Notes: generated by a model not told the origin, from the sequence alone. Counted from the first letter of the stretch, positions 17,864 to 63,457 are shown. The stretch is 64,000 bases of DNA from an uncultured Chloroflexia bacterium (GCA_963739515.1 CAVUAO010000002.1:51263-115262), one strand, 5' to 3'. A program made the numbers and translations.

Positions 17864-18175
17864 TTAGACGGCGACCGCTTTTTTGATTTTTCCGGGATGT
17901 CTTTTCCAGCCGAGGGTTTCCAGCAGGTCGCCGATGGCTTTGTCCTGTTGCATCTCACCGCGTAATGGCATGGTGGGGTCGAAACTGTATTTTATCCGCC
18001 GCCCCTCCCTCTTCTTCGTGACGTAGCCGTCGGCTTCCAGATCGTTGATGATATTGCGCGTGGCTTTTTCTGTGATGCCGATGGCTGCGGAAATATCCCG
18101 GGCGGTTATCCGTGGCTGCTGGGCGATGAGGTTGAGTACCATGGCATGGTTGGTCAGAAATTTCCATCCCGGCAT
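17864..18175 (-). CDS. Winged helix-turn-helix transcriptional regulator
   Basis: W.FLTNH..VL, RDISAAIGITE..RNIINDLE.DGY, REGRR; divergent from the kamA operon. Confidence 0.9.
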   Translation of the reverse strand: MPGWKFLTNHAMVLNLIAQQPRITARDISAAIGITEKATRNIINDLEADGYVTKKREGRRIKYSFDPTMPLRGEMQQDKAIGDLLETLGWKRHPGKIKKAVAV

Positions 18176-18243
18176 GCTCTTACCTCCTTGCCCGGTTTTT
18201 TAAAAAATATTTTTTATCTTTCGGTTACAATTTCAAAAACCTA

Positions 18244-18294
18244 TTGACAATTTTTACCCAGGTTGTATAATTAATTTAGGAATAAAAATTCCTA
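18244..18294 (+). promoter_or_regulatory. Sigma70 promoter with palindromic operator upstream of the kamA operon
   Basis: TTGACA (18244), 16-nt spacer, TATAAT (18266); perfect inverted repeat TAGGAAT-AAAA-ATTCCTA at 18277-18294. Confidence 0.75.
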
Positions 18295-18393
18295 TATATT
18301 ATAACAGGAATGTCAAGTTAACACAAGTAATTAACGAAAAAACCGTTAAAAATAGAACAATCTAAATAAAAAGGAGCGTTAAAAAAAAGAAAA

Positions 18394-19770
18394 GTGAAAA
18401 CGTCATCGGTGGCCAGTAAAACCCGTACCACCCCCTCTACTACCAGAATGACAATGGAAACCATGTCCCGGAACGAAGCTGAAGAACCTCCCAGTAAAAC
18501 TCTAATCGCCAAAAATATCGATGACGAGCCCCCCGGTAAAAGCCTTACCGGAAGATATAGACTGTTCGGGAACGTCCCGGACAGCTCTTGGCATGATTGG
18601 AAGTGGCACTTCCGTAACCGCATCACCACCGTTGACCAGCTCAGCCGGCTGGTACCGCTATCGACTGAGGAAAAAGCGCAAATCGAAATGGTTTGCCAGC
18701 GTTATCCTCTCGCCATCACGCCTTACTACCTGTCGCTCATTGACCCCTCCGACCCCAACGACCCCGTGAGGAAACAAGCCATACCTTCCATCCTGGAAAT
18801 TTCCATGAGCGATATAGGATTGGAAGACCCCCTGGCGGAAAAAGAAGACTCGGTGGTCCCCGGCCTGGTGCACCGCTACCCGGATAGGGTGTTGATGGTC
18901 CTCACCGATATCTGCCCCATGCTCTGCCGTCACTGCACCCGCAAGAGGGAATGGCGGCATGGTGGCTGGGTGCGCCCCTGGAGCGAAATCGAAGCCATGC
19001 TGGGTTACCTGCGCCGGAACACGAAAGTCAGGGATGTCATCATCTCCGGAGGCGACCCGCTGACGCTTGCCACGGCTCACCTGGAGAACATCATCGCCAG
19101 GATACGGGAAATCAAACACATCGAAATCATCCGTATCGGCAGCCGGTTCCCCGTGGTGCTGCCGCAGCGTATTGACGCCGAGCTCTGCGACATGCTTTCG
19201 CGGCACGGCCCCATCTGGCTCAATACTCACTTTAACCACCCCCGTGAGATCACGCCGGAATCCGCCGCTGCCTGCGACCGCCTGCTGCGGGCCGGCGTGC
19301 CGGTCAATAACCAGACAGTGCTGCTGCGCGGCATCAACGACAGCGTCCAGACGCAGCTGAAGCTCTGCCAGGGCTTACTGAAAATAAAAGTGCGTCCTTA
19401 CTACCTCTTCCAGTGTGACGAGGTGCAGGGGACGGAGCATCTCCGAACCTCGGTGGACGTCGGCATAAAAATTATTGAAGGAATGCGCGGGCATACCTCC
19501 GGTTTGGCCGTACCTAACTTCGTCGTCGACTTGGTCAACGGCGGTGGCAAAGTGCCCCTGCAGCCCAACTACGTGCTTTCGATGACCAAGGACGAGTTGC
19601 TCTTGAAAAACTACGAGGGCAAAGTCTTCCGTTATCGCAATCCTAATTCGTCGGTCCGCCGCGACAATGTCGGGGCGCCGGTCAGCGGCGTCGTGGATAG
19701 CCTGCTGGCGGATGCTGACCTCCCGGTGAAAACTGAAGGAGAGGTAGATGCGGATCGGGTTATCGTTTGA
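18394..19770 (+). CDS. kamA: KamA-family radical SAM/PLP aminomutase (lysine 2,3-aminomutase-like)
   Basis: HRYPDR, CPMLCRHC, SGGDPL, HFNHP, QCD and VVD...GGGK (PLP Lys); start codon uncertain. Confidence 0.92.
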   Translation: MKTSSVASKTRTTPSTTRMTMETMSRNEAEEPPSKTLIAKNIDDEPPGKSLTGRYRLFGNVPDSSWHDWKWHFRNRITTVDQLSRLVPLSTEEKAQIEMVCQRYPLAITPYYLSLIDPSDPNDPVRKQAIPSILEISMSDIGLEDPLAEKEDSVVPGLVHRYPDRVLMVLTDICPMLCRHCTRKREWRHGGWVRPWSEIEAMLGYLRRNTKVRDVIISGGDPLTLATAHLENIIARIREIKHIEIIRIGSRFPVVLPQRIDAELCDMLSRHGPIWLNTHFNHPREITPESAAACDRLLRAGVPVNNQTVLLRGINDSVQTQLKLCQGLLKIKVRPYYLFQCDEVQGTEHLRTSVDVGIKIIEGMRGHTSGLAVPNFVVDLVNGGGKVPLQPNYVLSMTKDELLLKNYEGKVFRYRNPNSSVRRDNVGAPVSGVVDSLLADADLPVKTEGEVDADRVIV

Positions 19771-20749
19771 CCTTAAAGCGGCGGTAGAAGGCCATCTCGC
19801 CGTCGAAGATGCGCTGGAAGAATATGATTCTCCGGAAACGGTGGAGATGATATCGGCGGCCCTGGCGTCGCAGGGTCACACCGTCGTCCGTCTGGGCGGC
19901 GGCAAACACTTTCTCGATAATATCCGCCGCGAGAGTGTTGACCTCGTCTTTAACATCGCCGAAGGCCGCGGTACTTATCGCAGTCGCGAGGCCCAGGTGC
20001 CGGCCGTCCTGGAAATGCTGGATATTCCCTTTACCGGCTCCGACCCTCTGACCCTGGCGGTCTGCCTGGACAAGCCGCTGACCAAGAAGCTGATGGCGGC
20101 GGAAGGTATCCGCACGCCCGACTGGTTCGTTATCGCCGGTGAGGCGGAGCTGCGCCGCGCGCCCTGGCATAACCTGAAATTCCCCGTCATCATCAAGCCG
20201 GCAGCGGAGGGCTCAAGCAAGGGCATTCGTCTGACATCGCTGGCGCATAACGTCCCCCAGGCGGAAGACGAGGCCCGCCGGATTTTCCAGGGCTACCGCC
20301 AGCCGGTCATGGCGGAGGAGTTCATCAGCGGCGACGAGGTCACTGTGGGGATAACCGGAAACTCGCCGCCCAAAATCGTCGGCATGATGCGCGTCGTCCC
20401 CAAGAAACCGGTCGAGCATTTCGTCTACTCGCTGGAAGTGAAACGCGACTACGTAAACCTCGTGGACTACGAGTGCCCCGCCCGGCTGCCGCGGCGTACC
20501 CTCGATACGATGGAGCTTTTCGCTCTGAGAGCCTTTAAGATGCTGGGCTGCCGGGACTTTTCCCGCATCGACTTCCGGGTCGGCCTGGACGGCACGCCTT
20601 ACTTTATCGAAATCAATCCGCTGCCCGGACTGGGGAGCTATAGCGACCTCGTTATCATGGCTCAGATGCTCGGGTGGACTTATGAGGCGTTAATCGGCGC
20701 GGTGCTCGATGCCGCTTTAAAGAGGTACCCGCAATGTGTGCGCGTATAG
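19748..20749 (+). CDS. ATP-grasp ligase, D-Ala-D-Ala ligase-like (copy 1)
   Basis: FNIAEG, PFTGS, LDK, KP..EGSSKG, RIDFR, EINPLPG. Confidence 0.9.
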   Translation: MRIGLSFDLKAAVEGHLAVEDALEEYDSPETVEMISAALASQGHTVVRLGGGKHFLDNIRRESVDLVFNIAEGRGTYRSREAQVPAVLEMLDIPFTGSDPLTLAVCLDKPLTKKLMAAEGIRTPDWFVIAGEAELRRAPWHNLKFPVIIKPAAEGSSKGIRLTSLAHNVPQAEDEARRIFQGYRQPVMAEEFISGDEVTVGITGNSPPKIVGMMRVVPKKPVEHFVYSLEVKRDYVNLVDYECPARLPRRTLDTMELFALRAFKMLGCRDFSRIDFRVGLDGTPYFIEINPLPGLGSYSDLVIMAQMLGWTYEALIGAVLDAALKRYPQCVRV

Positions 20750-21813
20750 CCGTTGTCTATAACGAGCCGAACCCGTCGCGTTACGACCGTACCAATGAGC
20801 AAAAGGCGGTCATCGGTGTCCTTGAGGCGGTGGAAGCGGTCCGCGCTTCGATAGTTGAGCTCGGGTACGAGGTCGTCCTCCTGCCGCTGGTGCCGCCCTT
20901 TAAGACCGCCCGGCAAAAGCTGGCCGCGCTGGATGTCGCGCTGGTCTTCAACCTTTTCGAGGGTTTTTGCGGCGAGCCGGAAACGGAAGCCCTGGTGCCG
21001 GAAGCCCTGGACGAGTTGGGCATACCTTTTACCGGCTGTCGGACCTCGGTGCTCCGCCTGGCTCTTGATAAAGCCAAGGTCAAGGTGCTGCTCCAGGCCG
21101 CCGGCATCCCTACCGCGGACTTCCAGCTTCTTAATCCCGATACTCTCTCCACGTTCCGGCTCGAATTTCCCTGTATTGTTAAGCCCCGCGCCGAGGATGC
21201 CAGTCACGGCATTACCGCGGACAGCGTTGTGCGGGACTTTGAATCTCTCGCCAGGCAGGTCAGGGTTGTGTCCGAATCTTACGGCGGCAGTGCCCTGGTG
21301 GAAAAGTTTATTGGCGGGCGGGAGTTTAACGCCACCGTGATGGGCAACGAAAAGTGTATTGTGTTGCCCGTGTCTGAAATCGTCTATTCGCTAGCCCCGG
21401 ACGTGCCCCGCATATTGAGCTTTGAAGCTAAGTGGGAGGAGGACAGCGTTTATTTCAAGGGTACCAAGGTTGTTTGCCCGGCGCCCATAAGAGCCGCGGA
21501 GTGGGATTATATCGCCGCGACGGCCCTGGCGTCTTATAATTTGCTCGATTGCACCGGCTATGCCCGGGTGGATATGCGCATGGATGAAGCGGGAAAACTT
21601 AATGTGATGGAAGTCAATCCTAACCCGGATATCTCTCCAGGGACCGGCGCGGCCCGTCAGGCCCTGGCGGCCGGCATGAATTACGCGCAGTTTGTGGATA
21701 GAATTGTGAAACTGGCTCTGGAGAGGAAAGAATATGACCATCGGAATCCGCGCCATGGTCGCCGGGGACAAACCGGCGCTGATGCGAATACTGCGGCATA
21801 CGCCCGAATTTAA
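20734..21813 (+). CDS. ATP-grasp ligase, D-Ala-D-Ala ligase-like (copy 2)
   Basis: FNLFEG, PFTG, LDK, KP..EDASHG, RVDMR, EVNPNP. Confidence 0.9.
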   Translation: MCARIAVVYNEPNPSRYDRTNEQKAVIGVLEAVEAVRASIVELGYEVVLLPLVPPFKTARQKLAALDVALVFNLFEGFCGEPETEALVPEALDELGIPFTGCRTSVLRLALDKAKVKVLLQAAGIPTADFQLLNPDTLSTFRLEFPCIVKPRAEDASHGITADSVVRDFESLARQVRVVSESYGGSALVEKFIGGREFNATVMGNEKCIVLPVSEIVYSLAPDVPRILSFEAKWEEDSVYFKGTKVVCPAPIRAAEWDYIAATALASYNLLDCTGYARVDMRMDEAGKLNVMEVNPNPDISPGTGAARQALAAGMNYAQFVDRIVKLALERKEYDHRNPRHGRRGQTGADANTAAYARI

Positions 21814-22210
21814 GCCTTTCGAGGTGGCGGTGGCGGAGGAGGTCATTGACGCCTATCTTGCCGACCCCATTGGTACCGGTTACTTTACCCTGGTCGCTGA
21901 GGACGACGGCAAAATCGCGGGCTACGTCTGTTATGGAGAAACGCCTTGCACCGTGGGCACCTGGGATATCTTCTGGATAGCCGTCGACCGGACAAAAAGG
22001 GGAAGGGGCATCGGCAAAATCCTTTCGGAAAAGGCGGAAGCGGCGATTAAACAGGCCGGGGGCAGGCTGGCGGTCATTGAGACCTCCTCGACCCCTCTGT
22101 ATGAAAATACCCGGCGTTTTTACCTCGGCCGCGGCTATGAGAACGTCGCCCGCATCCCGGATTTCTATTCCCCCGGCGACGATAAACTTATTCTCCTGAA
22201 GAAGCTATAA
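21734..22210 (+). CDS. GNAT family N-acetyltransferase
   Basis: IAV...RGRGIG acetyl-CoA motif, FY..GY. Confidence 0.92.
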   Translation: MTIGIRAMVAGDKPALMRILRHTPEFKPFEVAVAEEVIDAYLADPIGTGYFTLVAEDDGKIAGYVCYGETPCTVGTWDIFWIAVDRTKRGRGIGKILSEKAEAAIKQAGGRLAVIETSSTPLYENTRRFYLGRGYENVARIPDFYSPGDDKLILLKKL

Positions 22211-22252
22211 TAATATTAGCCGGAATTCCAGCCTGGGAGGGGATACTTTAGC

Positions 22253-22849
22253 GTGTCCTGGCAAAATTTCGTTTTGACCTTCGTGCCCCTGTTCATCGTT
22301 ATCGATGCCTTCGGCAATCTGCCCTTCGTCATCACCATGGGCGAAGGCAGAGATAAATCGGAACGCCGCCGCATGGTCCATATCGCCGTCATCACCGCGA
22401 CCATCGTCGGGCTGGTCTTCCTTTTCTTCGGACGTTTTATCCTGGACGTGATGAATATCTCCGTCGGCTCTTTCGCCATCGCCGGCGGCATTATCCTGCT
22501 GGTGCTCTCGATTAACTACATGATCAGCGGCCACATGGTCACGACCATTAAAGAAGAGATGGTGGCGGTCGTGCCCATCGGCACCCCGCTGACGGTCGGC
22601 CCGGCCACCATCACCACCCTGATTATCCTGGCCCTCCAGTATCCCCTTTATTTGGTCCTCATCTCTTTTGCCCTGAACATGCTGATTACCTGGATTGTCT
22701 TCATGTTAAGCCAGCGGATTGGCGCTTTCATGGGGCAGGGCGGTATCAGGGCGGTCTCGCGGGTCTTCTCCCTGCTGCTCGCTGCCATCGCCGTGAGCAT
22801 GGTGATCCACGGGCTAAATCTCGTTGGCATCATCAACGCGACAGGCTAG
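22253..22849 (+). CDS. MarC family integral membrane protein
   Basis: LFIVID..GN, IAGG, AVVPIGTPL.VGP, R..LLLAAIAV. Confidence 0.92.
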   Translation: MSWQNFVLTFVPLFIVIDAFGNLPFVITMGEGRDKSERRRMVHIAVITATIVGLVFLFFGRFILDVMNISVGSFAIAGGIILLVLSINYMISGHMVTTIKEEMVAVVPIGTPLTVGPATITTLIILALQYPLYLVLISFALNMLITWIVFMLSQRIGAFMGQGGIRAVSRVFSLLLAAIAVSMVIHGLNLVGIINATG

Positions 22850-22914: not shown

Positions 22915-24153
22915 ATGATTTCCATAATTACCCTGGCGGTGGTTTTTCTGCTTATCGCCGTGCGCCGGGTCGGCAATATCAGGCTCCGGATATGGCAGAT
23001 TATGCTCCTGGGGGCGCTGGTCGTTCTCGTTACCCGGGAAATATCCCCTTTAAATGCCCTCAAGGCGATCAATATCGACGTGATGCTTTTCCTTTTCGGC
23101 GTTTTCACCATCGGCCAGGCGATGGAGGACAGCGGCTATCTCGGCCACCTGGCTTACCGCTTTTTCGGGAAGGCCCATTCCCTGAACTCTTTGGTGCTCC
23201 TGATACTTTTCGGCGTGGGTCTGCTCTCGGCGTTGCTTTTAAACGACACCCTGGCTATCATCGGCACGCCCGTGGTACTGTCTCTCGCCGGCCGGAACAA
23301 TACCCAGCCCAAAATCCTGCTGCTTTCCCTGGCTTTCGCCGTAACCATCGGCAGCGTGATGAGTCCCATCGGCAATCCCCAGAATTTGCTGATAGCCATC
23401 CATGGCAACGTGACCAACCCTTTCGTAACTTTCTTTAAATACCTCATACTGCCCACTTTGTTGAACTTGGCGATCGCTTACGGTCTATTGAGACTATTCT
23501 ACCGTAAACATTTTGGCGGTCAGCCTGCGGTGCAATCTGAAGAGCCGATAAAGGACGTCCGGTTGGCCAATCTTGCCAGGATTTCTTTGGTCATGCTGGT
23601 CGTTCTGGTGCTGGTCAAGATATTGATGGTGTTTATCGCGCCAAACATCGATTTCAAGCTGACCTATATCGCCCTGGCGGCGGCTTTACCCATTTTTGTC
23701 TTTATTCCCCGCCGCCCCGGCATATTGAAACGGCTCGACTGGTTTACCCTGATTTTCTTTGCCGCGATGTTCGTCCTGATGCAGAGCGTCTGGGACTCCG
23801 GCTATTTCCAGAGGGCGATTGCTTCCACGAACATTAATTTGAATTCGACGGGCATGATTCTGGGGGTGAGCGTTCTGCTGAGCCAGGTGCTCTCCAACGT
23901 CCCCCTGGTGGCGCTCTATTTGCCGGTGCTTTTACAGGCGGGCGCGGCGACTACCCAGATGATGGCGCTGGCGGCGGGGAGCACCATCGCCGGCAACCTC
24001 ACCATCCTCGGCGCGGCCAGCAATATTATCATTATCCAGAACGCTGAGAAACGGAGCGGCGCCACTCTGACTTTTCTGGAGTTCGTGAAAATCGGCGTGC
24101 CCCTGACCATTTTGAACGTGACGGTCTATTGGCTCTTTCTGATGATTTTCTGA
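22915..24153 (+). CDS. ArsB/NhaD (SLC13/CitM) family anion permease
   Basis: NDT, IGSVMSPIGNPQN, SNVP, STIAGN...GAASN. Confidence 0.9.
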   Translation: MISIITLAVVFLLIAVRRVGNIRLRIWQIMLLGALVVLVTREISPLNALKAINIDVMLFLFGVFTIGQAMEDSGYLGHLAYRFFGKAHSLNSLVLLILFGVGLLSALLLNDTLAIIGTPVVLSLAGRNNTQPKILLLSLAFAVTIGSVMSPIGNPQNLLIAIHGNVTNPFVTFFKYLILPTLLNLAIAYGLLRLFYRKHFGGQPAVQSEEPIKDVRLANLARISLVMLVVLVLVKILMVFIAPNIDFKLTYIALAAALPIFVFIPRRPGILKRLDWFTLIFFAAMFVLMQSVWDSGYFQRAIASTNINLNSTGMILGVSVLLSQVLSNVPLVALYLPVLLQAGAATTQMMALAAGSTIAGNLTILGAASNIIIIQNAEKRSGATLTFLEFVKIGVPLTILNVTVYWLFLMIF

Positions 24154-33075: not shown

Positions 33076-34537
33076 ATGAAAAGACCCAGGATTGTGAATA
33101 AGCGTATTGACGACGATTTGTTGATGAAAAAGCGCCGCGAGGAGCTGGATAAGTGGCCCACCGGCAAAGAGGTGGACTTCGATGAGGCGGTGGCTTACCA
33201 GAAAAGCCTGCCGGACTCAAAAATCTGGTGGAAGGTGATGGTAAAGCTCCGCGATGAAGGCCGGATGAGCGTTTTCCCCCGCGCCGGCACCCCCATCCTG
33301 GAAAAAATGATTGAGCTCTGCCAGGGACTCCGCGATTCCGGCGTCGTCCTCATCCCCGTGACCACGGATAGCTATACCCGCCTCGGCCAGTACGAAAAGG
33401 TCGAGGAAATTCTCAAGGAGTGCTACCGCACCGGCCAGCCTCTCCTGAACGGCTTTCCCATCATTAACTATGGAGTTAATAAGACCCGCAAGCTGATTGA
33501 AAGCGTCGATGCTGCTTTCAGTCCCCGCGGCGCCGGCGGGGAAATCGCCATCGCCTCCGGCATGACCACCGCCGAGGCCGGCCTGGGCTTTTTAGCCTGG
33601 GGCAGCTATTCCAAGAAGATGACTATCCGCGAGCTGGTGGAGAGCAGCCAGAACGGTATGCGGACCATCGGCTGGTACGCCGATAGGGGCGTGATATTGT
33701 GCAAAGACCTCCATGGCTGGCTCCCCGGCGCGCCTTTCCCCCTGAGCGTCAATATCGTCTGTCATGATTATCGAGGCGCTGACGGCGGCGGAGCAGGGCC
33801 AGAAAGCCCTGTATCCGCTGGTGCACTGCATGGGCAACATGGCGCAGGACATGGCCTGGATTCGCCTCGCCCCGCGACTCATCCGCGAGTATCTTGACAA
33901 GTTCGGCTATAGGGACTGCCAGATTATCGGCACCTGTCCCGCCCAGACGCCGCTTTTCCCCGTCGCCATGGACCTGGGCGGCGCTTTCGCCTATCTGAGT
34001 TACGTTTCGATGGTCGGCGCGCTGGCCAGGGCTAACGCCGTCGACCTCCGCAGCATTGATGAAGGGGCCGGCGTTCCCACTCAGGAGACCCACAAGGTGA
34101 GCTACCGCGCCGCCAAGTGGATTTTCGACGTTGTCCGCGAGCAGAAAATCGATATTCAGGTAAAAGATATTGAAGTCGAAGAAAAGATTACCGAAGCTGA
34201 GGTCAGGGCTATTTTTTACCGGATTTTGGACCTCGGCGACGGTGATGTCGTCGACGGCACCATCAAGGCCGTCGAGTCCGGCGTGCTGGATTCCCCATGG
34301 AGTCCCAACGTTAACGTTAAGGATAAAGTGCTGGGCGTGAGGGATGCCCGCGGCGCCTGCCGCTACCTGGAGTTTGGCAACCTCCCCATCCCCAAATACA
34401 TCAAGGAGTTCCACCGCCGCAAAATAGCCGAGCGGGAGAAGCTGGAAGGCAAAAAAGCGGATTACCATACCGCCGTTAAGGACCTCTGGAGCCTCAGCAA
34501 GGGTAAAATCGTGGGTATCCCGCCTTTTAATCAGTAA
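33076..34537 (+). CDS. glmE: Divergent glutamate/methylaspartate mutase epsilon subunit-like protein (one frameshift near 33762)
   Basis: WPTG, PRAG, DSYTR, LLNGFPIINYG, IIEAL.AAEQG and RDARGA.RYLEFGNLP motifs spread over two ORFs that join after removing one base. Confidence 0.85.
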
Positions 34538-35020: not shown

Positions 35021-36388
35021 ATGGACGATATCCGGCTTCTCATTGATTTCGGCAGCACCTTCACCAAGGTCGTCGCCGTCGACCTCGCCAAAATCGAGGT
35101 CGTGGCTACCGCCCGGGTGCCCTCCACCGTGGACACCGATATCACTTTAGGGCTGGAGGAAGCTTTAGGGCAGATTGCCCAAAAAACCAGCCTGACCAAC
35201 CTCGAAAAGAAGGAAGCCCTCGCCTGCTCCAGCGCCGCCGGCGGCCTGCGTATGGTCTGCGCCGGCTTCGTGCCCGAGCTCACCAGCAAGGCGGCCAGCC
35301 TCGCGGCTTTAGGGGCGGGCGCTAAGGTGGTTGGCAGCTATTCTTATAAGCTAACCGAATCTGAAGTCCATGAAATCGAGTCGTCCGCTCCGGATATCCT
35401 CCTCCTCTCCGGCGGCACGGACGGTGGTGACGAGCAGGTCATTATTCACAACTCCCGCCTGTTTGCCCACACCGGCACCGCTATTAAGAATGTCATCATC
35501 GCGGGTAATAAGACCGCTTATGACGAAATTAAAACCATCTTTAAAGATAGTCCTAAAAACGTTATTTATACCAGGAACGTCATGCCGGAGATAGGTGTGC
35601 TGGATGTCGCCCCGTGCAATAAAGAAATCCGCGCCCTCTTTATGCGGAACATTATCGAGGCTAAAGGCATCGCCAGAGCCAGGGCAATCATCAAGGACGT
35701 CATTATGCCCACCCCTTCCGCCGTTTTAGAGGCCGCCAAGCTTATCGCCGGCGGCTATAAAAACGATGCCGGTTTCGGGGAGCTTATCGTTATCGACCCC
35801 GGTGGCGCTACCACGGACGTCCATTCCATCGCTAAGGGCGCTCCCGCCCGACCCGATATCGTGATGGTCGGCCTGCCGGAGCCTTATGAAAAGAGGACGG
35901 TTGAAGGCGACCTCGGCCTGAAATATAATCTGGACCGGCTTTTGGAGCTGGTCGGCGATCGGGAAACGCCGCCCGGTTTTGCCGCTGTTGTCCGCCGCTT
36001 CCGGGAGGGCGCTTTGCCCTGTAATCAGGAAGAGTTTGCCTGCCATCGGCTTTTGTCTCGCCTTATGGTAGAGGTGGCGATGGAACGCCACGCCGGCCGG
36101 CTCGAAGTCGTCTATAGTCCCGCCGGCGAGAGGCTTATCCAGCACGGCAAGGACCTCACCGGCGTGAAGACCGTTATCGGTACGGGCGGCCCGATTATTT
36201 TTTCGGATAGCCCGCGGCAAATCCTGGAGGGCGTCCTCTTCCGTGAGGAAAATCCGTTCGTTTTGAAGCCCAAAAATCCCGCATTTTATCTGGACGAGCT
36301 ATATCTTCTCTATGCGGTGGGCTTGCTCGCCCAGGTCGAGCCGGCCAGGGCGTTGTCACTTGCCAGAAAGTATCTCAAATCAATATAG
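35021..36388 (+). CDS. glmL: Mutase accessory/reactivase protein GlmL
   Basis: DFGSTFTK, CSSAAGGL, GGTDGG, MPTP, DPGGATTDVHS, KRTVEGDLG. Confidence 0.93.
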   Translation: MDDIRLLIDFGSTFTKVVAVDLAKIEVVATARVPSTVDTDITLGLEEALGQIAQKTSLTNLEKKEALACSSAAGGLRMVCAGFVPELTSKAASLAALGAGAKVVGSYSYKLTESEVHEIESSAPDILLLSGGTDGGDEQVIIHNSRLFAHTGTAIKNVIIAGNKTAYDEIKTIFKDSPKNVIYTRNVMPEIGVLDVAPCNKEIRALFMRNIIEAKGIARARAIIKDVIMPTPSAVLEAAKLIAGGYKNDAGFGELIVIDPGGATTDVHSIAKGAPARPDIVMVGLPEPYEKRTVEGDLGLKYNLDRLLELVGDRETPPGFAAVVRRFREGALPCNQEEFACHRLLSRLMVEVAMERHAGRLEVVYSPAGERLIQHGKDLTGVKTVIGTGGPIIFSDSPRQILEGVLFREENPFVLKPKNPAFYLDELYLLYAVGLLAQVEPARALSLARKYLKSI

Positions 36389-54904: not shown

Positions 54905-56035
54905 TTACTGGAAGTGCCGCTGCCTTACCGGTTCGCTGGGCGCCTCGCTCTGGGTCGGCAGCCGCCGCTTGCTGAACAAAGGACGCCGCAGGAAGGAAGG
55001 CATATCGAGCTCGTCCTCGGTCTTCATGTTCTTCAGAATCTTGTTGAGCTCTTCCTCTTCCTGGTTCACTTTGCCCATCCCCAGCTTGGCATGGAAGCCG
55101 GTGGTGATGAGGGTGATCTTGACCTCGTTCTCCATCGACGGGTCATTGGCGACACCGAAGATGATGTTGGCTTCCGGGTCAACGGCCTGTTTGATGACGT
55201 CGGCGGCCTGGTTGACCTCGAATAGCGAGAGGCTGTTGCCGCCCACCACGTTGAACAGGACGGCTTTGGAGCCCTCGATGGAAACATCGAGCAGCGGGCT
55301 GGCCAGCGCTTCCTTGGCGGCGTCGATGGCGCGGTTCTGTCCCGTCCCCTTACCGATGGACATCCACGCAGGTCCGGCATCTTTCATGATGGCCTTTACG
55401 TCGGCAAAGTCGAGGTTAATCATGCCCGGTGTGGTGATGACCTCGGCGATGGCCTGGACGCCGTGCCTCAGCACATCATCGGCCAGTTTAAAGGCGCTGT
55501 CCACGCCGGTCTTGTGGTCGCAGAGGGTCATCAGGCGGTCGTTCGGGATGATTATCAGCGTATCGACCTTGTCGATAAGATTTTCAATCCCCTCTTCCGC
55601 CGTCTCCATGCGATGTACGCCCTCGAAGGCGAACGGTTTGGTGACCACGGCGATGGTGAGAGCGCCGCTGTGTTTGGATATCTCCGCCACGATGGGAATC
55701 GCGCCGGTGCCGGTGCCGCCGCCCATGCCGGCGGTAACAAATACCATGTCCGCCCCGGAGATGAGTTCCTTCAGTTCGTCGCGGTTTTCCTCGGCGGCTT
55801 TAGCCCCGATGATGTGGTCGCCGCCCGCACCCAGGCCCTTGGTCAGCTTTGGCCCGAGCTGGACGCATACCGGGGCTTCACAGACCGCCAGGGCCTGGGC
55901 GTCAGTGTTCATCGCGATGAACTCGACACCCTGGATGTTCTCTCTGACCATGCGGGTCACGGCGTTGCTGCCGCCGCCACCCAGACCGATTACTTTTATC
56001 TTAGCTGGACTGGCTACGAAACTTGTTCTTGCCAT
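54905..56035 (-). CDS. ftsZ: Cell division protein FtsZ
   Basis: GGGGSNAV, GMGGGTGTG, NLDFADV, LDMPSFLR core peptide. Confidence 0.99.
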   Translation of the reverse strand: MARTSFVASPAKIKVIGLGGGGSNAVTRMVRENIQGVEFIAMNTDAQALAVCEAPVCVQLGPKLTKGLGAGGDHIIGAKAAEENRDELKELISGADMVFVTAGMGGGTGTGAIPIVAEISKHSGALTIAVVTKPFAFEGVHRMETAEEGIENLIDKVDTLIIIPNDRLMTLCDHKTGVDSAFKLADDVLRHGVQAIAEVITTPGMINLDFADVKAIMKDAGPAWMSIGKGTGQNRAIDAAKEALASPLLDVSIEGSKAVLFNVVGGNSLSLFEVNQAADVIKQAVDPEANIIFGVANDPSMENEVKITLITTGFHAKLGMGKVNQEEEELNKILKNMKTEDELDMPSFLRRPLFSKRRLPTQSEAPSEPVRQRHFQ

Positions 56036-56077
56036 GTCCTCCTCCTTTCAATACTATTTTGAATATTTTCTTTATCA

Positions 56078-57297
56078 TTAGTCGAACAGCTTTTTAAGCT
56101 GGATGTGCCAGCGCGTTCAGGGCACCGCCGAACATGCCCGCCCTTCCATTGCTTCTTGCCCCTGTTTTTGGCGCCCCAGAGCATCAGGCCGACGCCGGTG
56201 GCATAGGCCGGGTCGCGCAGGATATCGGCGATGCCGTAAATATCGGTGGGAGCGCCCACCCTGACCGGGATTCTCAGGATTTCACTCCCCAGCGAAGCGA
56301 TGCCGACCAGGTTGGAGCTGCCGCCGGTAAGTACCAGCCCTGCCGGTACCAGCGTATCGTAGTCCGAGGTCGGCATTTCCAGCAGGATTAGCTTCAGGAT
56401 TTCTTCGACCCTGGCCCGGATGATATCGCAGAGGTCCTGGTAGGAGACGCCGTGCCCGTCCTTGGATATGGCCGGTGAGGTATCTGTCTTGGCGTCGTAA
56501 ACGGGCATGACGCTGCCGTACTTTTTCTTCATTTCCTCGGCGATTTCAAACGGGAGTCCCAGGCCGATGGCGATATCACGGGTGAGCTGATATCCCGCTA
56601 CCGGCAGGATGGAGGTGTGCCAGATGCTGCCCTCTCTGAAGACGGCGACATCCGTGGTGCCGCCCCCGATATCCGCCATGATGACGCCTACCTGCTTTTC
56701 ATCTTCGGTGAGGATGGCCTCACTGCTGGCCAGGGGCTCCAGGACCAGGTCCTCGATGTCTATCCCGATACTGCGTATGCATTTCACGAGATTCTGAATG
56801 GAGGTTACGGCCGCGGTAATAACGTGTGTCTCTACGTCAAGGCGAAATCCGTGCATACCGACCGGGTTCTTGACACCGGGCTGACCGTCCACGGTATAGC
56901 TCCGCGGGATGACATGCAGCAGTCTGCGGTCGGTGGCCGTTTTGACGCTTTGGGCGGAGGCAAGAACTCGTTTTAAATCATCCGGTCGCACGACCCTGTC
57001 GTTGCGGGTAATGGCCACGACGCCGTGGTTATTCATCGAGGATACGTGACGGCCGGTAACGCCGATATAAGCTGATTCTACCTTGCAGGCGCTGGTCTGT
57101 TCGGCTTTCCTTACAGATTCGCGAATCGATTCTCTGGCTTCATTGATGTTGACCACCAGCCCTTTATGCAGTCCCTTAGACGGGGTAATCCCCACACCCA
57201 CGACGCGAGGGCTGCCCCCATCGCTGATATCTGCCAGGATGGTGCATATTTTGGTAGTGCCGACATCAATTGCACCTATTACATTTCTCTTTTTCAT
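56078..57297 (-). CDS. ftsA: Cell division protein FtsA (C-terminus apparently frameshifted)
   Basis: DVGTTK, DIGGGTT, LTGGS, YATGVGL. An amphipathic IQLKKLFD-stop lies in another frame ending at 56078; the ORF track reads on to 56014. Confidence 0.95.
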
Positions 57298-57391: not shown

Positions 57392-58444
57392 CTAAGCGGC
57401 AAAAAATTCCACCTTAATCTTTTGGAGTAATGCCGGCCGCCGCCAGCCCTGTAGCCTGGCAATGGTCAGGAAATCATGGTCGACGGTCGCGGCATAGCAG
57501 TCATCCTGCGCGATAATGTGTTCCGCCACTCTCAGCTTGGCGCTCCGGCTCCGCGGATTGGCGCGTATCTCGGCGGCTGAGGGGGTGATGACTTTTTTAT
57601 TGATAATCCTCAGACTCGGTATGTGCCCGCAGACACAGACCGGGGTCTCCGGCGGGCAGATACAGCCCCTGGCTTCTTTTTGCATAAACTGCTTGACGAT
57701 GCGGTCTTCCAGCGAGTGATAGGTAATTACCACCAGCCGGCCCTCGTAGCCGAGCAGGTCCACCGCCTGCTTTAACGCTGATTCCAGGTGTTCCAGTTCG
57801 TTATTCACGGCGATGCGCAGCGCCTGGAAAGTCCTGGTGGCCGGGTGCAGCCTGCCGTGGCGGCCGACCGCCTTCTCGATTAATTGGGCCAGCTGGCGGG
57901 TTGTCTCTATGGGTCTTTCTTTCACGATGGACCGGGCGATGCGCTGGCTCTGGCTTTCCTCGCCGTAGGTCCTGATGATACTGGCGAGCCTCGCTTCCGG
58001 GACCGTATTGACGATGTCGGCGGCGGTCGTCCTCTGTCCCGGGCTGAAGCGCATATCGAGCGGGGCGTCATGCTGAAAGCTGAAACCGCGTCCGCTCCCG
58101 CTCAGCTGGGGCGAAGAGAGCCCCAGGTCGAAGAGGATGCCGTGCACCGGGAAAAAATCGTATTTAACGCAGATGGACTGCAGGTTCACGAAATTATCGT
58201 TGACGAGCCGGATGGAGTCCCCGGCGCCCCGGAACCTCTCCTGGACCGCCTCTATGGCGTTGGGGTCGGCGTCGATGCCGAGCACCTGTCCGCCGGGCGA
58301 ACTTTTTTCCAGGATAGCGGCGGCGTGTCCCCCGCCGCCGAGAGTGCCGTCGATATACCGACCGCCTGGCTGGACCGCCAGGGCTTGGATTACCTCGGAG
58401 AGCAGGACGGGAGTATGGGTGGAGGCTGGACCGTGTTTTATCAT
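57392..58444 (-). CDS. rsmH: 16S rRNA m4C1402 methyltransferase
   Basis: [38 protein letters not shown]; TAATG overlap with mraZ. Confidence 0.98.
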
Positions 58445-58869
58445 TACCGATTTTCCAGGCTTTCTATGATCTGCCATGCCTGTTCCTGGCTGATGCCCTT
58501 CTCTTCCTCCCAGAGTCCCTTGTTCCATATCTCCAGGTTGGTGTTGACGCCAACGATGGTTATTTCATCAAGAATTTGGGCATGTTCCCGCAGGGGCGCC
58601 GGTAGGGCCACCCGGCCCTGCCCGTCAACCCTGGTAACGAAGGCCGTGGCAAACAGCGCCCGACTCAGCCGGCGCATTTTGCTGCGTGTCAGTGAGCCGC
58701 TGGTGAGTGAGCTGGAGAGCTTTTTCCATTCCGTCACCGTGTAGGCGGTGATACATTTCTCCGCCCCGACGGTTAATACGAGCCCATCCTTAAGCGCATT
58801 TCTGAAACGCGGCGGGATAGGCACCCGGCCCTTGTCATCTATTTTATAATCGAATTCACCGTAGAACAT
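58444..58869 (-). CDS. mraZ: Transcriptional regulator MraZ
   Basis: Two DxxGR motifs (DDKGR, DGQGR), LEIW. Confidence 0.98.
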
Positions 58870-60373: not shown

Positions 60374-61015
60374 ATGGATGTTTCATCGCTGGTTGAAATC
60401 AAAAAGAACCCGAAAATACCGGACATCGCCCCCGGCGATACCGTCCGGGTCAGCGCTAAGATCGTAGAAGGCGGCAAAGAGCGCATCCAGGTCTTCCAGG
60501 GCGTGGTCATCAAGATTAAGCGCGGCGGTAACGGCGCCGGCTTTACCGTCAGACATGTCGCCTACGGTGTTGGCGTGGAGCGCACCTTCCCGTACAATTC
60601 GCCGCTGGTAGAAAAAGTGGAGATTGTCCGCCAGGGCAAGGTGCGCCGTTCCCGGCTTTACTATCTGCGCGGACTCAGCGGCAAGGAAGCCCGCCGCAAG
60701 ATAAAGCGCGTCGAGAGGAAAGTCAGGGAGCAGGTAGGTGAGGAACTGTTGGTGGCGCCGCCGGAAGAAGAAGTTATCGAGCCCGTCGCCGCCGAAGTAA
60801 AACCGGAAGTCGCTGCCCCCGCCCCAGCTGCTCCCGAAGCCAAGGCTGCGACCGAAACCAAACCCGCGCCCGAAGCGAAAGCTGTGCCGGAGGCAAAGGC
60901 GGCCAAACCGGTCGAGCCGGTGAAGTCGGAGGCGGTCGCCGAAAAACCCGCCGCCCCGGAAGCGAAAGCCGCCCCACCCGCCGAGGCTAAAGAAACAGAA
61001 CCGCCCAAATCATAA
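60374..61015 (+). CDS. rplS: 50S ribosomal protein L19 with long Ala/Pro/Glu/Lys tail
   Basis: [34 protein letters not shown]. Confidence 0.97.
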
Positions 61016-61043
61016 ACGCCGTCGGGTCGTGCCGGAGGCTGGT

Positions 61044-63457
61044 ATGAAATATGCCGAGGTCAGTGTCAATTCACCGGCCGCCCGGCGTCGCACTTTTTCT
61101 TACGCCGTTCCTCCGGGTATGGATGTCCGCGAGGGACAGGCGGTCCTCGTTCCTTTCGGCGAGAAAGTCCTCCAGGGCGTTGTTCTGGAGCTGACCGACA
61201 TCCCCGCTGTGGAAGACACCCGCGAGATAATCGATATTCTTGAGCCGCTTCCGGTTTTATCGCCGAATCACTTATCCCTGGCGCGCTGGATTCGCGATTA
61301 TTACCTTGCGCCGCTGTTCGACGCGGTGGCTTTAATGCTGCCCCCGGGGTTCGAGCGGCGCGCCGTTACTTTCGTCAGCCCGGCGCGAACCGATATCGGC
61401 CCTTCCTCCCTGAACGACGACCAGCAGAAAATTCTCGAGCTTGTTGCCGGGCAGGAGAGGGTCGAGCTGAAAAGGCTGGAGAAAGCCCTCGGCAAGAAAA
61501 AGGCTTCATCCCTCGTGTCGTCGATGGTGCGGCATGGGCTCCTCTCCCGCAGCTATGAGCTGACGCACGTCCGGATAAAGCCCAAGAAAGAACTTTACCT
61601 GAGTCTAACCGGCGATATCAGTAAAGCCACGGAGCTGCCTCTTAAACAGGCGGCCCTTTTCCATTTGTTAATCGAAAAGAAAGTGCCGCTTTCCTGGGCG
61701 GAAGCCCGGAAACAGACCGGCGGCAACAAGTCTGTCGCTGCTGCCCTGGTACGCCGCGGGCTGGCCGCCTTTCAGGAGGTGGAAGTCCGCCGCGAGCCGA
61801 TTTCCTATGATAATATTACCTCTTCTTTTCCTTTGACCCTCACCGCCGACCAGCAGTCTGCATTTAATGCCGTGAAAGCCGGTTTAGGACGGGCGGCCGG
61901 GGTCAATGCCGGACCTGAAGTTTATTTGCTGCACGGCGTTACCGGCAGCGGTAAGACTGAGGTGTATTTACAGGCCCTGGCGGAGGCGGTAAAATTGGGT
62001 AAAAAAGGCATCGTCCTGGTGCCTGAGATTGCCCTGACCCCCCAGACCATCGAGCGTTTTGCCTCCCGTTTTCCCCACCGCGTGGCGGTACTGCACAGTC
62101 GACTCTCCCTGGGAGAGCAATATGACGAGTGGCACCGCATCCGCCGCGGTGACTTCGATGTCGTCATCGGGTCGCGGAGCGCTATCTTCGCGCCGCAGCC
62201 GGACCTCGGCTTGATCGTCATTGACGAGGAGCACGAGTGGACCTATAAGCAGGACAATTCGCCACATTATCACGCGCGGGCGGTGGCTATCAGGCTGGCC
62301 GGGTTTACCGGTGCCGTGGTGCTCCTGGGCAGCGCCACGCCGGACGTCGAGTCCTATTTTAAAGCGCAAAACGGCGAATATACGCTGTTAAAGCTCCCCG
62401 AGCGTATCGTCCCCACCGCCGGGGCGCCTTTACCCCGGGTGGAGGTCGTCGATATGAGGGAGGAGCTTAAAGCGGGCAACCTCGGCATTTTCAGTCGGTC
62501 GCTGACGCGCGCTATCAACGAAGCCATTGCCGCCGGGGAGCAGATAATTCTTTTTCTCAACCGGCGCGGCGGCGCCACCTTTATCCAGTGCCGGAACTGC
62601 GGTTTCGTGCTGCGCTGCCGCCGCTGTGATGTGCCTCTCGCCCAGAATATCGCCGGGGATACCCTGGTCTGCCACCAGTGCGGCTATCAGACCCCGGTCC
62701 CGCCGGTCTGCCCCAGGTGTGCCGGTCGCCAGTTGAAGTTTTTGGGCGCCGGGACCCAGAAGCTGGAGCAGGAAACGCGTTTCGCTTTTCCCCGCGCCCG
62801 CCAGCTTCGCTGGGATAGCGACGTTATCACCGGCAGGACCTCCCACGAGGCGATTTTGCAGAAATTCCGCACCCGCCAGGCGGAAATCCTCATCGGCACC
62901 CAGATGATTGCCAAGGGACTGGACATCCCCTCGGTGACGCTGGTCGGTGTTGTCAGCGCGGATACTTCGCTTAATCTCCCCGATTTCCGCTCCGGCGAGA
63001 GGACGTTCCAGTTGCTGAGCCAGGTCGCGGCCGGGCCGGGCGCGGGCCTTCGGGCGGACGCGTCGTTATCCAGACCTTTTCCCCCGAGCACTATGCCATA
63101 CAGGCGGCCGCCCGCCACGACTACGCTTCTTTTTACGAGCAGGAAATCGCCTATCGCCGGCAGCTTCATAATCCTCCGTTCACCCGCCTCGCCAGTCTGG
63201 TCTATGTCCACACCAACGAAGCTATCTGCCAGCGGGAGGCGGAAAAAATGAAACAGCGACTTGCCGGGGAAATGGCCGCCCGTGGCGTCGCCGGCATTGA
63301 AATCATCGGTCCCGCCCCCGCCTTTATCCGCCGCCTCAGAGGGCGGTTCCGCTGGCAGCTCGTCCTGCGCGGCTCCGGGCTGACGGACTTTTTAGCGCCG
63401 CTGGCTTTGCCGCAGGGCTGGACGATAAATATTGACCCCGTGAGTCTGGTTCAGTAA
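61044..63457 (+). CDS. priA: Primosomal protein N' (frameshift near 63028)
   Basis: GVTGSGKTE, DEEH, SAT, Cys clusters, GTQMIAKGLD. QVAGRAGR is restored by adding one C, and the frame continues to IDP. Confidence 0.95.

Follow-up and report, generated by a model that had tools for sequence, protein, structure and literature searches.

A widespread orphan operon joining a KamA-family aminomutase, two Ddl-like ligases and an acetyltransferase, and its probable β-lysine amide product

What would a bacterium with no apparent cell wall make with two enzymes annotated as D-alanine–D-alanine ligases, encoded directly behind an aminomutase of the lysine 2,3-aminomutase type? The question is raised by positions 17,864–22,849 of a 64,000-nucleotide stretch of DNA from an uncultured Chloroflexia bacterium (GCA_963739515.1, CAVUAO010000002.1:51263-115262), the whole of which is referred to here as the window. 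Four overlapping genes encode a radical-SAM aminomutase (KamA), two ATP-grasp ligases (Lig1 and Lig2) that public records both label D-alanine–D-alanine ligase, and a small acetyltransferase of the GNAT family; a gene for a MarC-family membrane protein follows. An initial annotation, made from the sequence alone, had proposed that the operon builds either an acetylated β-lysine-containing di- or tripeptide or a protein modification. The computational analysis described herein retains an acetylated β-lysine amide as the best reading, namely an N-acetylated β-lysine di- or tripeptide-like solute, and found no support for a protein modification by the ligases. That the product is a small amide of β-lysine is probable. 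The fuller proposal, a repressor-controlled and strongly promoted operon whose enzymes make a small N-acetylated β-lysine amide from lysine, is favoured by a narrower measure of confidence, and a role of the product as a stress or compatible solute is advanced only tentatively.

The genes of this cassette are kept together far beyond chance. In a species-representative genome scan that returned 206 Lig1 relatives, the best 80 of these 206 loci were inspected, and in 74 of the 80 the order KamA–Lig1–Lig2–GNAT is found on one strand. Five of the six exceptions lie at contig ends; the sixth (L013:4569-7208) has kept KamA and Lig1 together with a Lig2 remnant of ~74 amino acids and lacks the GNAT. 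All but one of the 80 loci are labelled Dehalococcoidia or Chloroflexota; the remaining label is Deltaproteobacteria. A second view comes from 151 genomes drawn evenly across the class: KamA exceeds its family cut-off in 24 of them, and a Lig2 orthologue (E ≤ 1e-87) is present in 20 of these 24, always within ~3 kb of KamA. Gene fusions tell of the same association. Five of nine long Lig2 homologues consist of a Lig1-like part followed by a Lig2-like part, and a profile of the small GNAT, which matches 647 representative clusters at E ≤ 1e-30, recovers 42 Lig2–GNAT fusions among the best 150 of these clusters, next to 105 standalone proteins and three with other extensions. The Lig1–Lig2 fusions support a joint action of the two ligases and no particular interface, which leaves the heterodimer suggested initially as a possibility; a complex prediction for the pair (score 0.00, mark 0.32) weighs neither way. 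The cassette also occurs in reduced form, since three genomes of one genus (g3) encode a cassette-type KamA (55% identical) and a Lig1 orthologue (54%) without Lig2 or the GNAT. Because the pair survives alone both in this genus and at the exceptional locus described above, KamA and Lig1 are taken as the minimal working unit.

The first gene of the operon (18,394–19,770, plus strand) encodes KamA, a 458-residue protein when read from a GTG codon. It scores 337 bits on the family model TIGR00238 (cut-off 199) and aligns with the lysine 2,3-aminomutase of Clostridium subterminale (2a5h) with 473 bits across 367 residues. The motifs on which the initial annotation relied are all present: the radical-SAM motif CxxxCxxC, which reads CPMLCRHC here, as well as GGGK, QCD and VVD. 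By alignment with 2a5h the pocket is of the lysine type, D342, D379 and K386 corresponding to D293, D330 and K337 of the clostridial enzyme, and each of the three is unchanged in 68 of 68 cassette KamA sequences. We take K337 of 2a5h to be the lysine that binds pyridoxal phosphate (PLP), and D293 and D330 to hold the ε-amino group of the substrate. Lysine is therefore the likely substrate of KamA, as far as a conserved active site can indicate it. Among the models for enzymes of specific function, the best score is that of the AblA equivalog (482.6 bits, cut-off 525.4), followed by the glutamate (445.6, cut-off 650), arginine (411.3, cut-off 600) and EpmB (236, cut-off 369) equivalogs; since every one of these cut-offs is missed, KamA appears to represent a separate subfamily. 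No second KamA-family gene was found in the genome. As for the start of the gene (18,394–18,550), the GTG codon lies 17 nucleotides past a GGAG box and is the only in-frame start ahead of the conserved core; it gives the protein a low-complexity N-terminal extension of about 50 residues, shared by the closest relatives only, and the exact start is uncertain.

Lig1 (19,748–20,749) and Lig2 (20,734–21,813) follow on the same strand. Both match the Pfam family of the D-alanine–D-alanine ligase C-terminal domain (PF07478, Dala_Dala_lig_C; 124.6 and 103.5 bits, respectively), Lig2 being divergent and having a predicted acidic substrate pocket. The model of Lig1 has a predicted local distance difference test score (pLDDT) of 88.3 and template modelling (TM) scores of 0.80–0.85 to DdlB. 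A look-up of the ESM Atlas with Lig2 listed Ddl-family clusters alone, from several phyla. In an alignment of 81 Lig1 and 76 Lig2 sequences with Escherichia coli DdlB, built with MAFFT, both ligases keep the ATP, magnesium and catalytic residues K97, K144, E180, E187, R255, D257, E270 and N272 (DdlB numbering) and on that account look catalytically competent. The substrate-binding residues tell a different story. Presumably E15, Y216 and S281/L282 are among the DdlB residues that hold the two D-alanines, and in the operon's own ligases these positions read V, L and S-D in Lig1 and S, W and T-G in Lig2. Across the alignment, E15 is replaced by V or I in Lig1 and by S or D in Lig2, H63 by an invariant E in both, E68 by R in Lig1 and T in Lig2, K215-Y216 by S-L in Lig1 and K-W in Lig2, and S281-L282 by S-D in Lig1, with the D invariant, and by T/S/A-G in Lig2. 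Lig2 differs further at G149 (D), S150 (A) and G276 (D) and its pocket contains two additional acidic residues that are invariant, D155 and D299. The distinct loops that had been pointed out earlier, EGSSKG in Lig1 and EDASHG in Lig2, were both read in the sequences. The acidic pair for the free α-ammonium group of the Ddl donor appears to be lost from both ligases, which would fit N-blocked or β-amino donors, and the newly gained invariant acidic residues could accommodate cationic side chains.

These replacements are accompanied by scores that fall short of every Ddl and Van model of NCBIfam, the best being 183 and 150 bits for the two ligases (cut-off 243). The genomic context points in the same direction. 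The genome (2.08 Mb, 95% complete) holds a single Mur_ligase_M match, which is FolC, so that the search for murC–F called for by the initial annotation returned no Mur ligase; no transpeptidase of the penicillin-binding protein type was found in the genome either, and its only two full-length Ddl-like genes are Lig1 and Lig2. A remnant of the division and cell wall (dcw) cluster is found in the window itself, where ftsZ (54,905–56,035), ftsA (56,014–57,297) and rsmH (57,392–58,528) are adjacent and none of the usual ftsL, ftsI, mur, mraY, ftsW, ddl or ftsQ genes stands between them. The stripped cluster from which a wall-less cell had been suspected is real, and the host is taken to be a wall-less Dehalococcoidia bacterium. 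With neither Mur ligases, a transpeptidase nor another full-length Ddl found in a genome of this completeness, D-Ala-D-Ala synthesis, already considered improbable before, is set aside; the replaced D-alanine residues, the missed cut-offs and the synteny with KamA lead to the same rejection of a D-Ala-D-Ala ligase identity. Judged from these features, Lig1 and Lig2 are Ddl-fold enzymes and not D-Ala-D-Ala ligases. The public label is misleading, as it is applied even in wall-less cells, and the mislabelled family is widespread, the GNAT marker alone accounting for the 647 representative clusters mentioned above.

The fourth gene (21,734–22,210, plus strand) encodes a GNAT acetyltransferase of 158 residues (PF00583, Acetyltransf_1, 47 bits). 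A profile of 15 orthologues matches PDB entry 2r7h, a solved and uncharacterised protein, with an E value of 7e-44 over 150 residues, and the GNAT is assigned to the 2r7h family. The AblB model TIGR03827 has no match in the operon's GNAT or elsewhere in the genome; the best NCBIfam match is RimI, with 32.6 bits, far under the cut-off. The four genes overlap as the initial annotation had stated, the open reading frames (ORFs) giving exactly 23 nucleotides for KamA/Lig1, 16 for Lig1/Lig2 and 80 for Lig2/GNAT. The last of these overlaps corresponds to a C-terminal tail of Lig2 that is present in the closest relatives only.

Control of the operon can be read from the region ahead of KamA. A gene for a winged helix-turn-helix (wHTH) regulator of the MarR/ArsR-like kind (17,864–18,175, minus strand, 103 amino acids; Pfam HTH_24 37.8 bits, MarR_2 36.7 bits) diverges from the operon. 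The intervening DNA contains a sigma-70-type promoter (18,244–18,271, plus strand), TTGACA-16 nt-TATAAT, that matches the consensus at 12 of 12 positions. Immediately past its −10 box begins a palindromic operator candidate (18,274–18,297), ATTTAGGAAT-aaaa-ATTCCTATAT, with 10-nucleotide arms that are 90% complementary. The divergent regulator and operator noted initially could in this way be given a perfect promoter and a conserved candidate site. Flanking genes were counted at loci with at least 1500 nucleotides of flank (61 downstream, 59 upstream), and 34 of the 59 have a divergent wHTH gene no more than 3.5 kb upstream of KamA. In the 28 loci where it is adjacent, TTGACA-N16-18-TAnnnT is kept in 27 and the palindrome AGGAAT-N2-6-ATTCCT, with at most two mismatches, in 20. 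The idea of a regulator acting on this operator holds because promoter and palindrome are conserved among these related loci, and the wHTH protein is likely the repressor of the operon. A conserved promoter of perfect consensus further suggests high flux once derepressed. Rfam models detected three tRNAs only in the whole 64-kb window and no riboswitch ahead of KamA.

From these elements a pathway can be proposed. KamA would convert L-lysine to β-lysine, as its lysine-type active site indicates. Lig1, the constant partner of KamA, would then make a first ATP-dependent amide bond involving β-lysine. Lig2 and the GNAT, which their fusions mark as a unit, may form a further amide bond and close off a free amine by acetylation. 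The product or a precursor would finally be carried across the membrane by MarC (22,253–22,849, plus strand; TIGR00427 121.6 bits, cut-off 99.2) and by a permease of the CitMHS/ArsB/NhaD superfamily (22,915–24,153, plus strand; PF03600 175 bits), whose gene starts 66 nucleotides past MarC and is possibly the last of the transcription unit; a convergent α/β hydrolase gene ends the block after the permease. The part given to MarC needs qualification: it does follow the GNAT here, as reported initially, and is not a fixed member of the operon, being found on the same strand downstream in 14 of the 61 loci. MarC is better described as a probable optional transporter neighbour. In 9 of 80 loci a member of the permease's protein cluster flanks the cassette, on either its upstream or its downstream side, and the upstream neighbours include an MFS transporter within 3.5 kb in 12 of the 59 loci and an ArsB/CitMHS permease in 6 of the 59.

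The relatives also offer hints as to the fate of the compound. One downstream neighbour (23 of the 61 loci) is a protein of 579 amino acids encoded directly after the cassette (L020:8491-10230 and 22 further loci). Its C-terminal half is closest to acetylpolyamine amidohydrolases (APAHs; 9gkz with an E value of 3e-72), a weak GNAT signal comes from its N-terminal half, and its translation shows, by eye, no obvious hydrophobic stretch resembling an N-terminal signal peptide. In 7 of the 61 loci an M20 deacylase of the ArgE/DapE type and a second GNAT follow the cassette. No orthologue of the GNAT/APAH fusion was found in the operon's own genome. In the relatives, the fusion protein and the M20 deacylase would degrade the compound, and such add-on hydrolases suggest that the product is both made and dismantled and that its acetyl group sits on an alkyl amine. 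A bulk cytoplasmic solute fits the repressed consensus promoter, the hydrolase add-ons and the transporters.

A connection to translation emerges outside the window. The initial annotation had noted the absence of EpmA and efp, which is correct for the window; elsewhere in the genome, on contig C3, an adjacent efp–epmA pair is encoded (L089:5993-7492). The elongation factor P (EF-P) has 188 residues and a KPGKG loop, and epmA starts 3 nucleotides past efp. Its product of 309 residues, the short length of a LysRS core, scores 306.3 bits on TIGR00462, over the cut-off of 286.9. The pair has no epmB alongside. Because the operon's KamA is the sole one in a genome with efp–epmA, it probably also feeds the β-lysylation of EF-P, and it is an even bet that one pool of β-lysine serves both the operon and the lysine modification of EF-P. 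In the class sample, EpmA is over the cut-off in 7 genomes and short EpmA-like frames lie just under it in 3 more; each of these 10 genomes belongs to the 24 with KamA, and in 8 of them only one KamA is present. The remaining 14 of the 24 lack an EpmA-type gene, and for this reason the complete cassette cannot be regarded as an EF-P system. As a separate observation, contig C6 (positions 60,807–61,722), likewise outside the window, holds two adjacent LysRS/EpmA-core matches of 115 and 90 bits with an in-frame TGA in the first, perhaps a gene resembling a class-II synthetase that is broken or recoded.

Several points speak against the proposed acetylated β-lysine solute or its link to EF-P. The lysine, glutamate and arginine equivalog scores of KamA, all below their cut-offs, leave room for another basic amino acid. 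The residue arguments for the ligases depend on the MAFFT alignment, in which loops may be misaligned and DdlB 205–220 is poorly aligned. The co-occurrence of EpmA and KamA is confounded by relatedness. KamA enzymes of the clostridial type make (S)-β-lysine and EpmA prefers the (R) form, a mismatch that makes the sharing of a pool with EpmA uncertain. The habitats of cassette carriers, taken from record titles, are groundwater, lakes, peat, soil and marine, and do not single out salt. Finally, the spermidine synthase of the genome and the polyamine-type deacetylase among the add-on genes fit a polycation as well as they fit a solute. A bolder extension of the proposal, in which a β-lysine compound with a charge switched by acetylation and deacetylation, drawn from a pool common with EpmA, would be an undescribed primary metabolite of anaerobes, a stress metabolite tied to the tuning of translation, has perhaps one chance in several and is offered as speculation.

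The alternative that survives best, although it is improbable, is a polyamine-like polycation such as a short β-lysine oligomer, whose charge would be switched by the GNAT and APAH activities and whose targets would be nucleic acids or membranes, in contrast to a neutral solute. The closeness of the add-on enzyme to acetylpolyamine amidohydrolases argues for it, as do the invariant D155 and D299 of Lig2, the change of H63 to E in both ligases, the exporter-type neighbours (MFS upstream, MarC downstream) and the fact that Ddl itself couples two copies of one substrate. The genome, however, already has a spermidine synthase, the operon contains no deacetylase, with none of the GNAT/APAH type found in the genome, and there is no sign of oligomerisation. 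Less credit still can be given to a secreted bioactive compound, that is, an antibiotic-like β-lysine peptide or a metal-binding molecule for which acetylation would be self-protection and MarC, MFS and CitMHS proteins the exporters. β-Lysine does occur in several antibiotics, the neighbouring genes are exporter-like, and in one genome of genus g3 (G063, L097:2240-7587) genes for a Fur-family regulator and ZnuABC come after the KamA–Lig1 pair on the same strand. Against this stand the presence of the cassette in genomes of very small size and across most lineages of several families, the add-on deacetylase without an obvious signal-peptide-like stretch, and a neighbourhood with neither resistance nor tailoring genes.

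Rated a shade lower again is the possibility that the ligases place β-lysine and acetyl groups on a protein, be it EF-P or another component of translation. The sole KamA in a genome with efp–epmA would be in keeping with it, and so would the GNAT's best NCBIfam match, RimI, weak as that match is. Yet EpmA is already available in this genome for that step, EpmA-type genes are missing from the 14 KamA genomes mentioned above, a metabolite would accord with the hydrolase add-ons and the transporters, and Ddl-fold ATP-grasp enzymes are known for small-molecule substrates. Plain synthesis of N-ε-acetyl-β-lysine in the manner of AblA/AblB, with the ligases as accessories, is very unlikely. It would account for KamA and a GNAT in one operon and for AblA being the best equivalog of KamA; it is countered by a GNAT that does not match AblB, by a KamA under the AblA cut-off and by the ligases being the most constant partners. 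Genome G063 of genus g3 adds to this by encoding a true AblA–AblB fusion of 753 amino acids (L096:1735-3996; AblA 751.7 and AblB 339.4 bits, both over their cut-offs), which would be a one-polypeptide N-ε-acetyl-β-lysine synthase. As this genus holds the fusion separately, in addition to the cassette-type KamA–Lig1, the cassette is distinct from the acetyl-β-lysine pathway. That Lig1 and Lig2 are ordinary or relic D-Ala-D-Ala ligases, as their Ddl fold, Pfam family and public names would have it, deserves almost no credence in view of the missed equivalog and subfamily cut-offs, the replaced D-Ala-binding residues, the Mur ligases and transpeptidase not found, the stripped dcw cluster and the tight synteny of the ligase genes with KamA.

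The proposed route to an acetylated β-lysine amide resembles several known systems without coinciding with any of them. AblA and AblB form N-ε-acetyl-β-lysine in methanogens as well as in some bacteria (Pflueger et al. 2003, as cited in PMC3543383). Like the cassette, that system combines a KamA-type aminomutase with a GNAT in one operon and leads to an acetylated lysine-derived solute; in the cassette, by contrast, the GNAT is much smaller and of another family, KamA belongs to a separate subfamily, and two ATP-grasp ligases are added. Ngg is a fused GNAT/ATP-grasp enzyme that acts with AsnO in the pathway to the osmolyte N-acetylglutaminylglutamine amide. There, too, an N-acetylated small peptide results from the joint work of a GNAT and an ATP-grasp ligase that are often fused, whereas the cassette has two ATP-grasp enzymes of the Ddl type, a β-lysine building block and no amidotransferase. 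The Ngg family (TIGR03103) is not homologous at the family level, its only score being 18.9 bits for the neighbouring second GNAT. In pyrrolysine synthesis, the radical-SAM lysine mutase PylB feeds the ATP-grasp ligase PylC, which links the rearranged amino acid with an amine in an amide bond. KamA differs from PylB in being PLP-dependent and in shifting an amino group rather than the carbon skeleton, and the cassette adds a second ligase and a GNAT; PylC is absent from the PDB sequence matches of the ligases at E ≤ 1e-10. With the DdlB/VanA family, Lig1 and Lig2 share the fold and the ATP, magnesium and catalytic residues, and they are set apart by replaced substrate residues, by a genome in which no murein pathway was found and by the constant link to KamA. 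The EpmA/EpmB system, which β-lysylates Lys34 of EF-P, is approached in that the genome's EpmA adjoins efp and KamA is the only candidate source of β-lysine. It is separated from the cassette by the low score of KamA on EpmB (236 bits, cut-off 369), by a separate operon and by ligases that are foreign to EpmA-type systems.

No description of a pathway composed of KamA, Ddl-like ligases and a GNAT was found in the literature, supplementary files not being covered. Passages of two further papers deal with mannosylglycerate (PMC4918011) and with the LysX regulon (PMC4045070), and not with a KamA–ligase cassette. What is described here is an orphan, widespread pathway made of known kinds of enzyme rather than a system of a new kind. 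The present analysis adds the situation of a sole KamA alongside EpmA, the KamA–Lig1 minimal unit, the frequency of Lig2–GNAT fusions and the conserved promoter–operator region. Identification of the product would correct the annotation of the ligases, extend the known biochemistry of Dehalococcoidia by a new metabolite derived from lysine, and show whether one aminomutase serves both metabolite synthesis and the modification of EF-P.

Genes of lysine fermentation were looked for in the window as well. None of the 37 window ORFs compared with family models matched a lysine-fermentation family, in agreement with the initial annotation. The B12-mutase genes near 33–36 kb are of the methylaspartate-mutase type. 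Among them, a gene resembling subunit E is spread over two overlapping frames, 33,076–33,897 (model positions 1–226) and 33,764–34,537 (model positions 232–478), so that the gene in the region 33,076–34,537 is either interrupted by a frameshift or genuinely divided. Past this gene lie GlmL (35,021–36,388) and three CaiB-type CoA-transferases.

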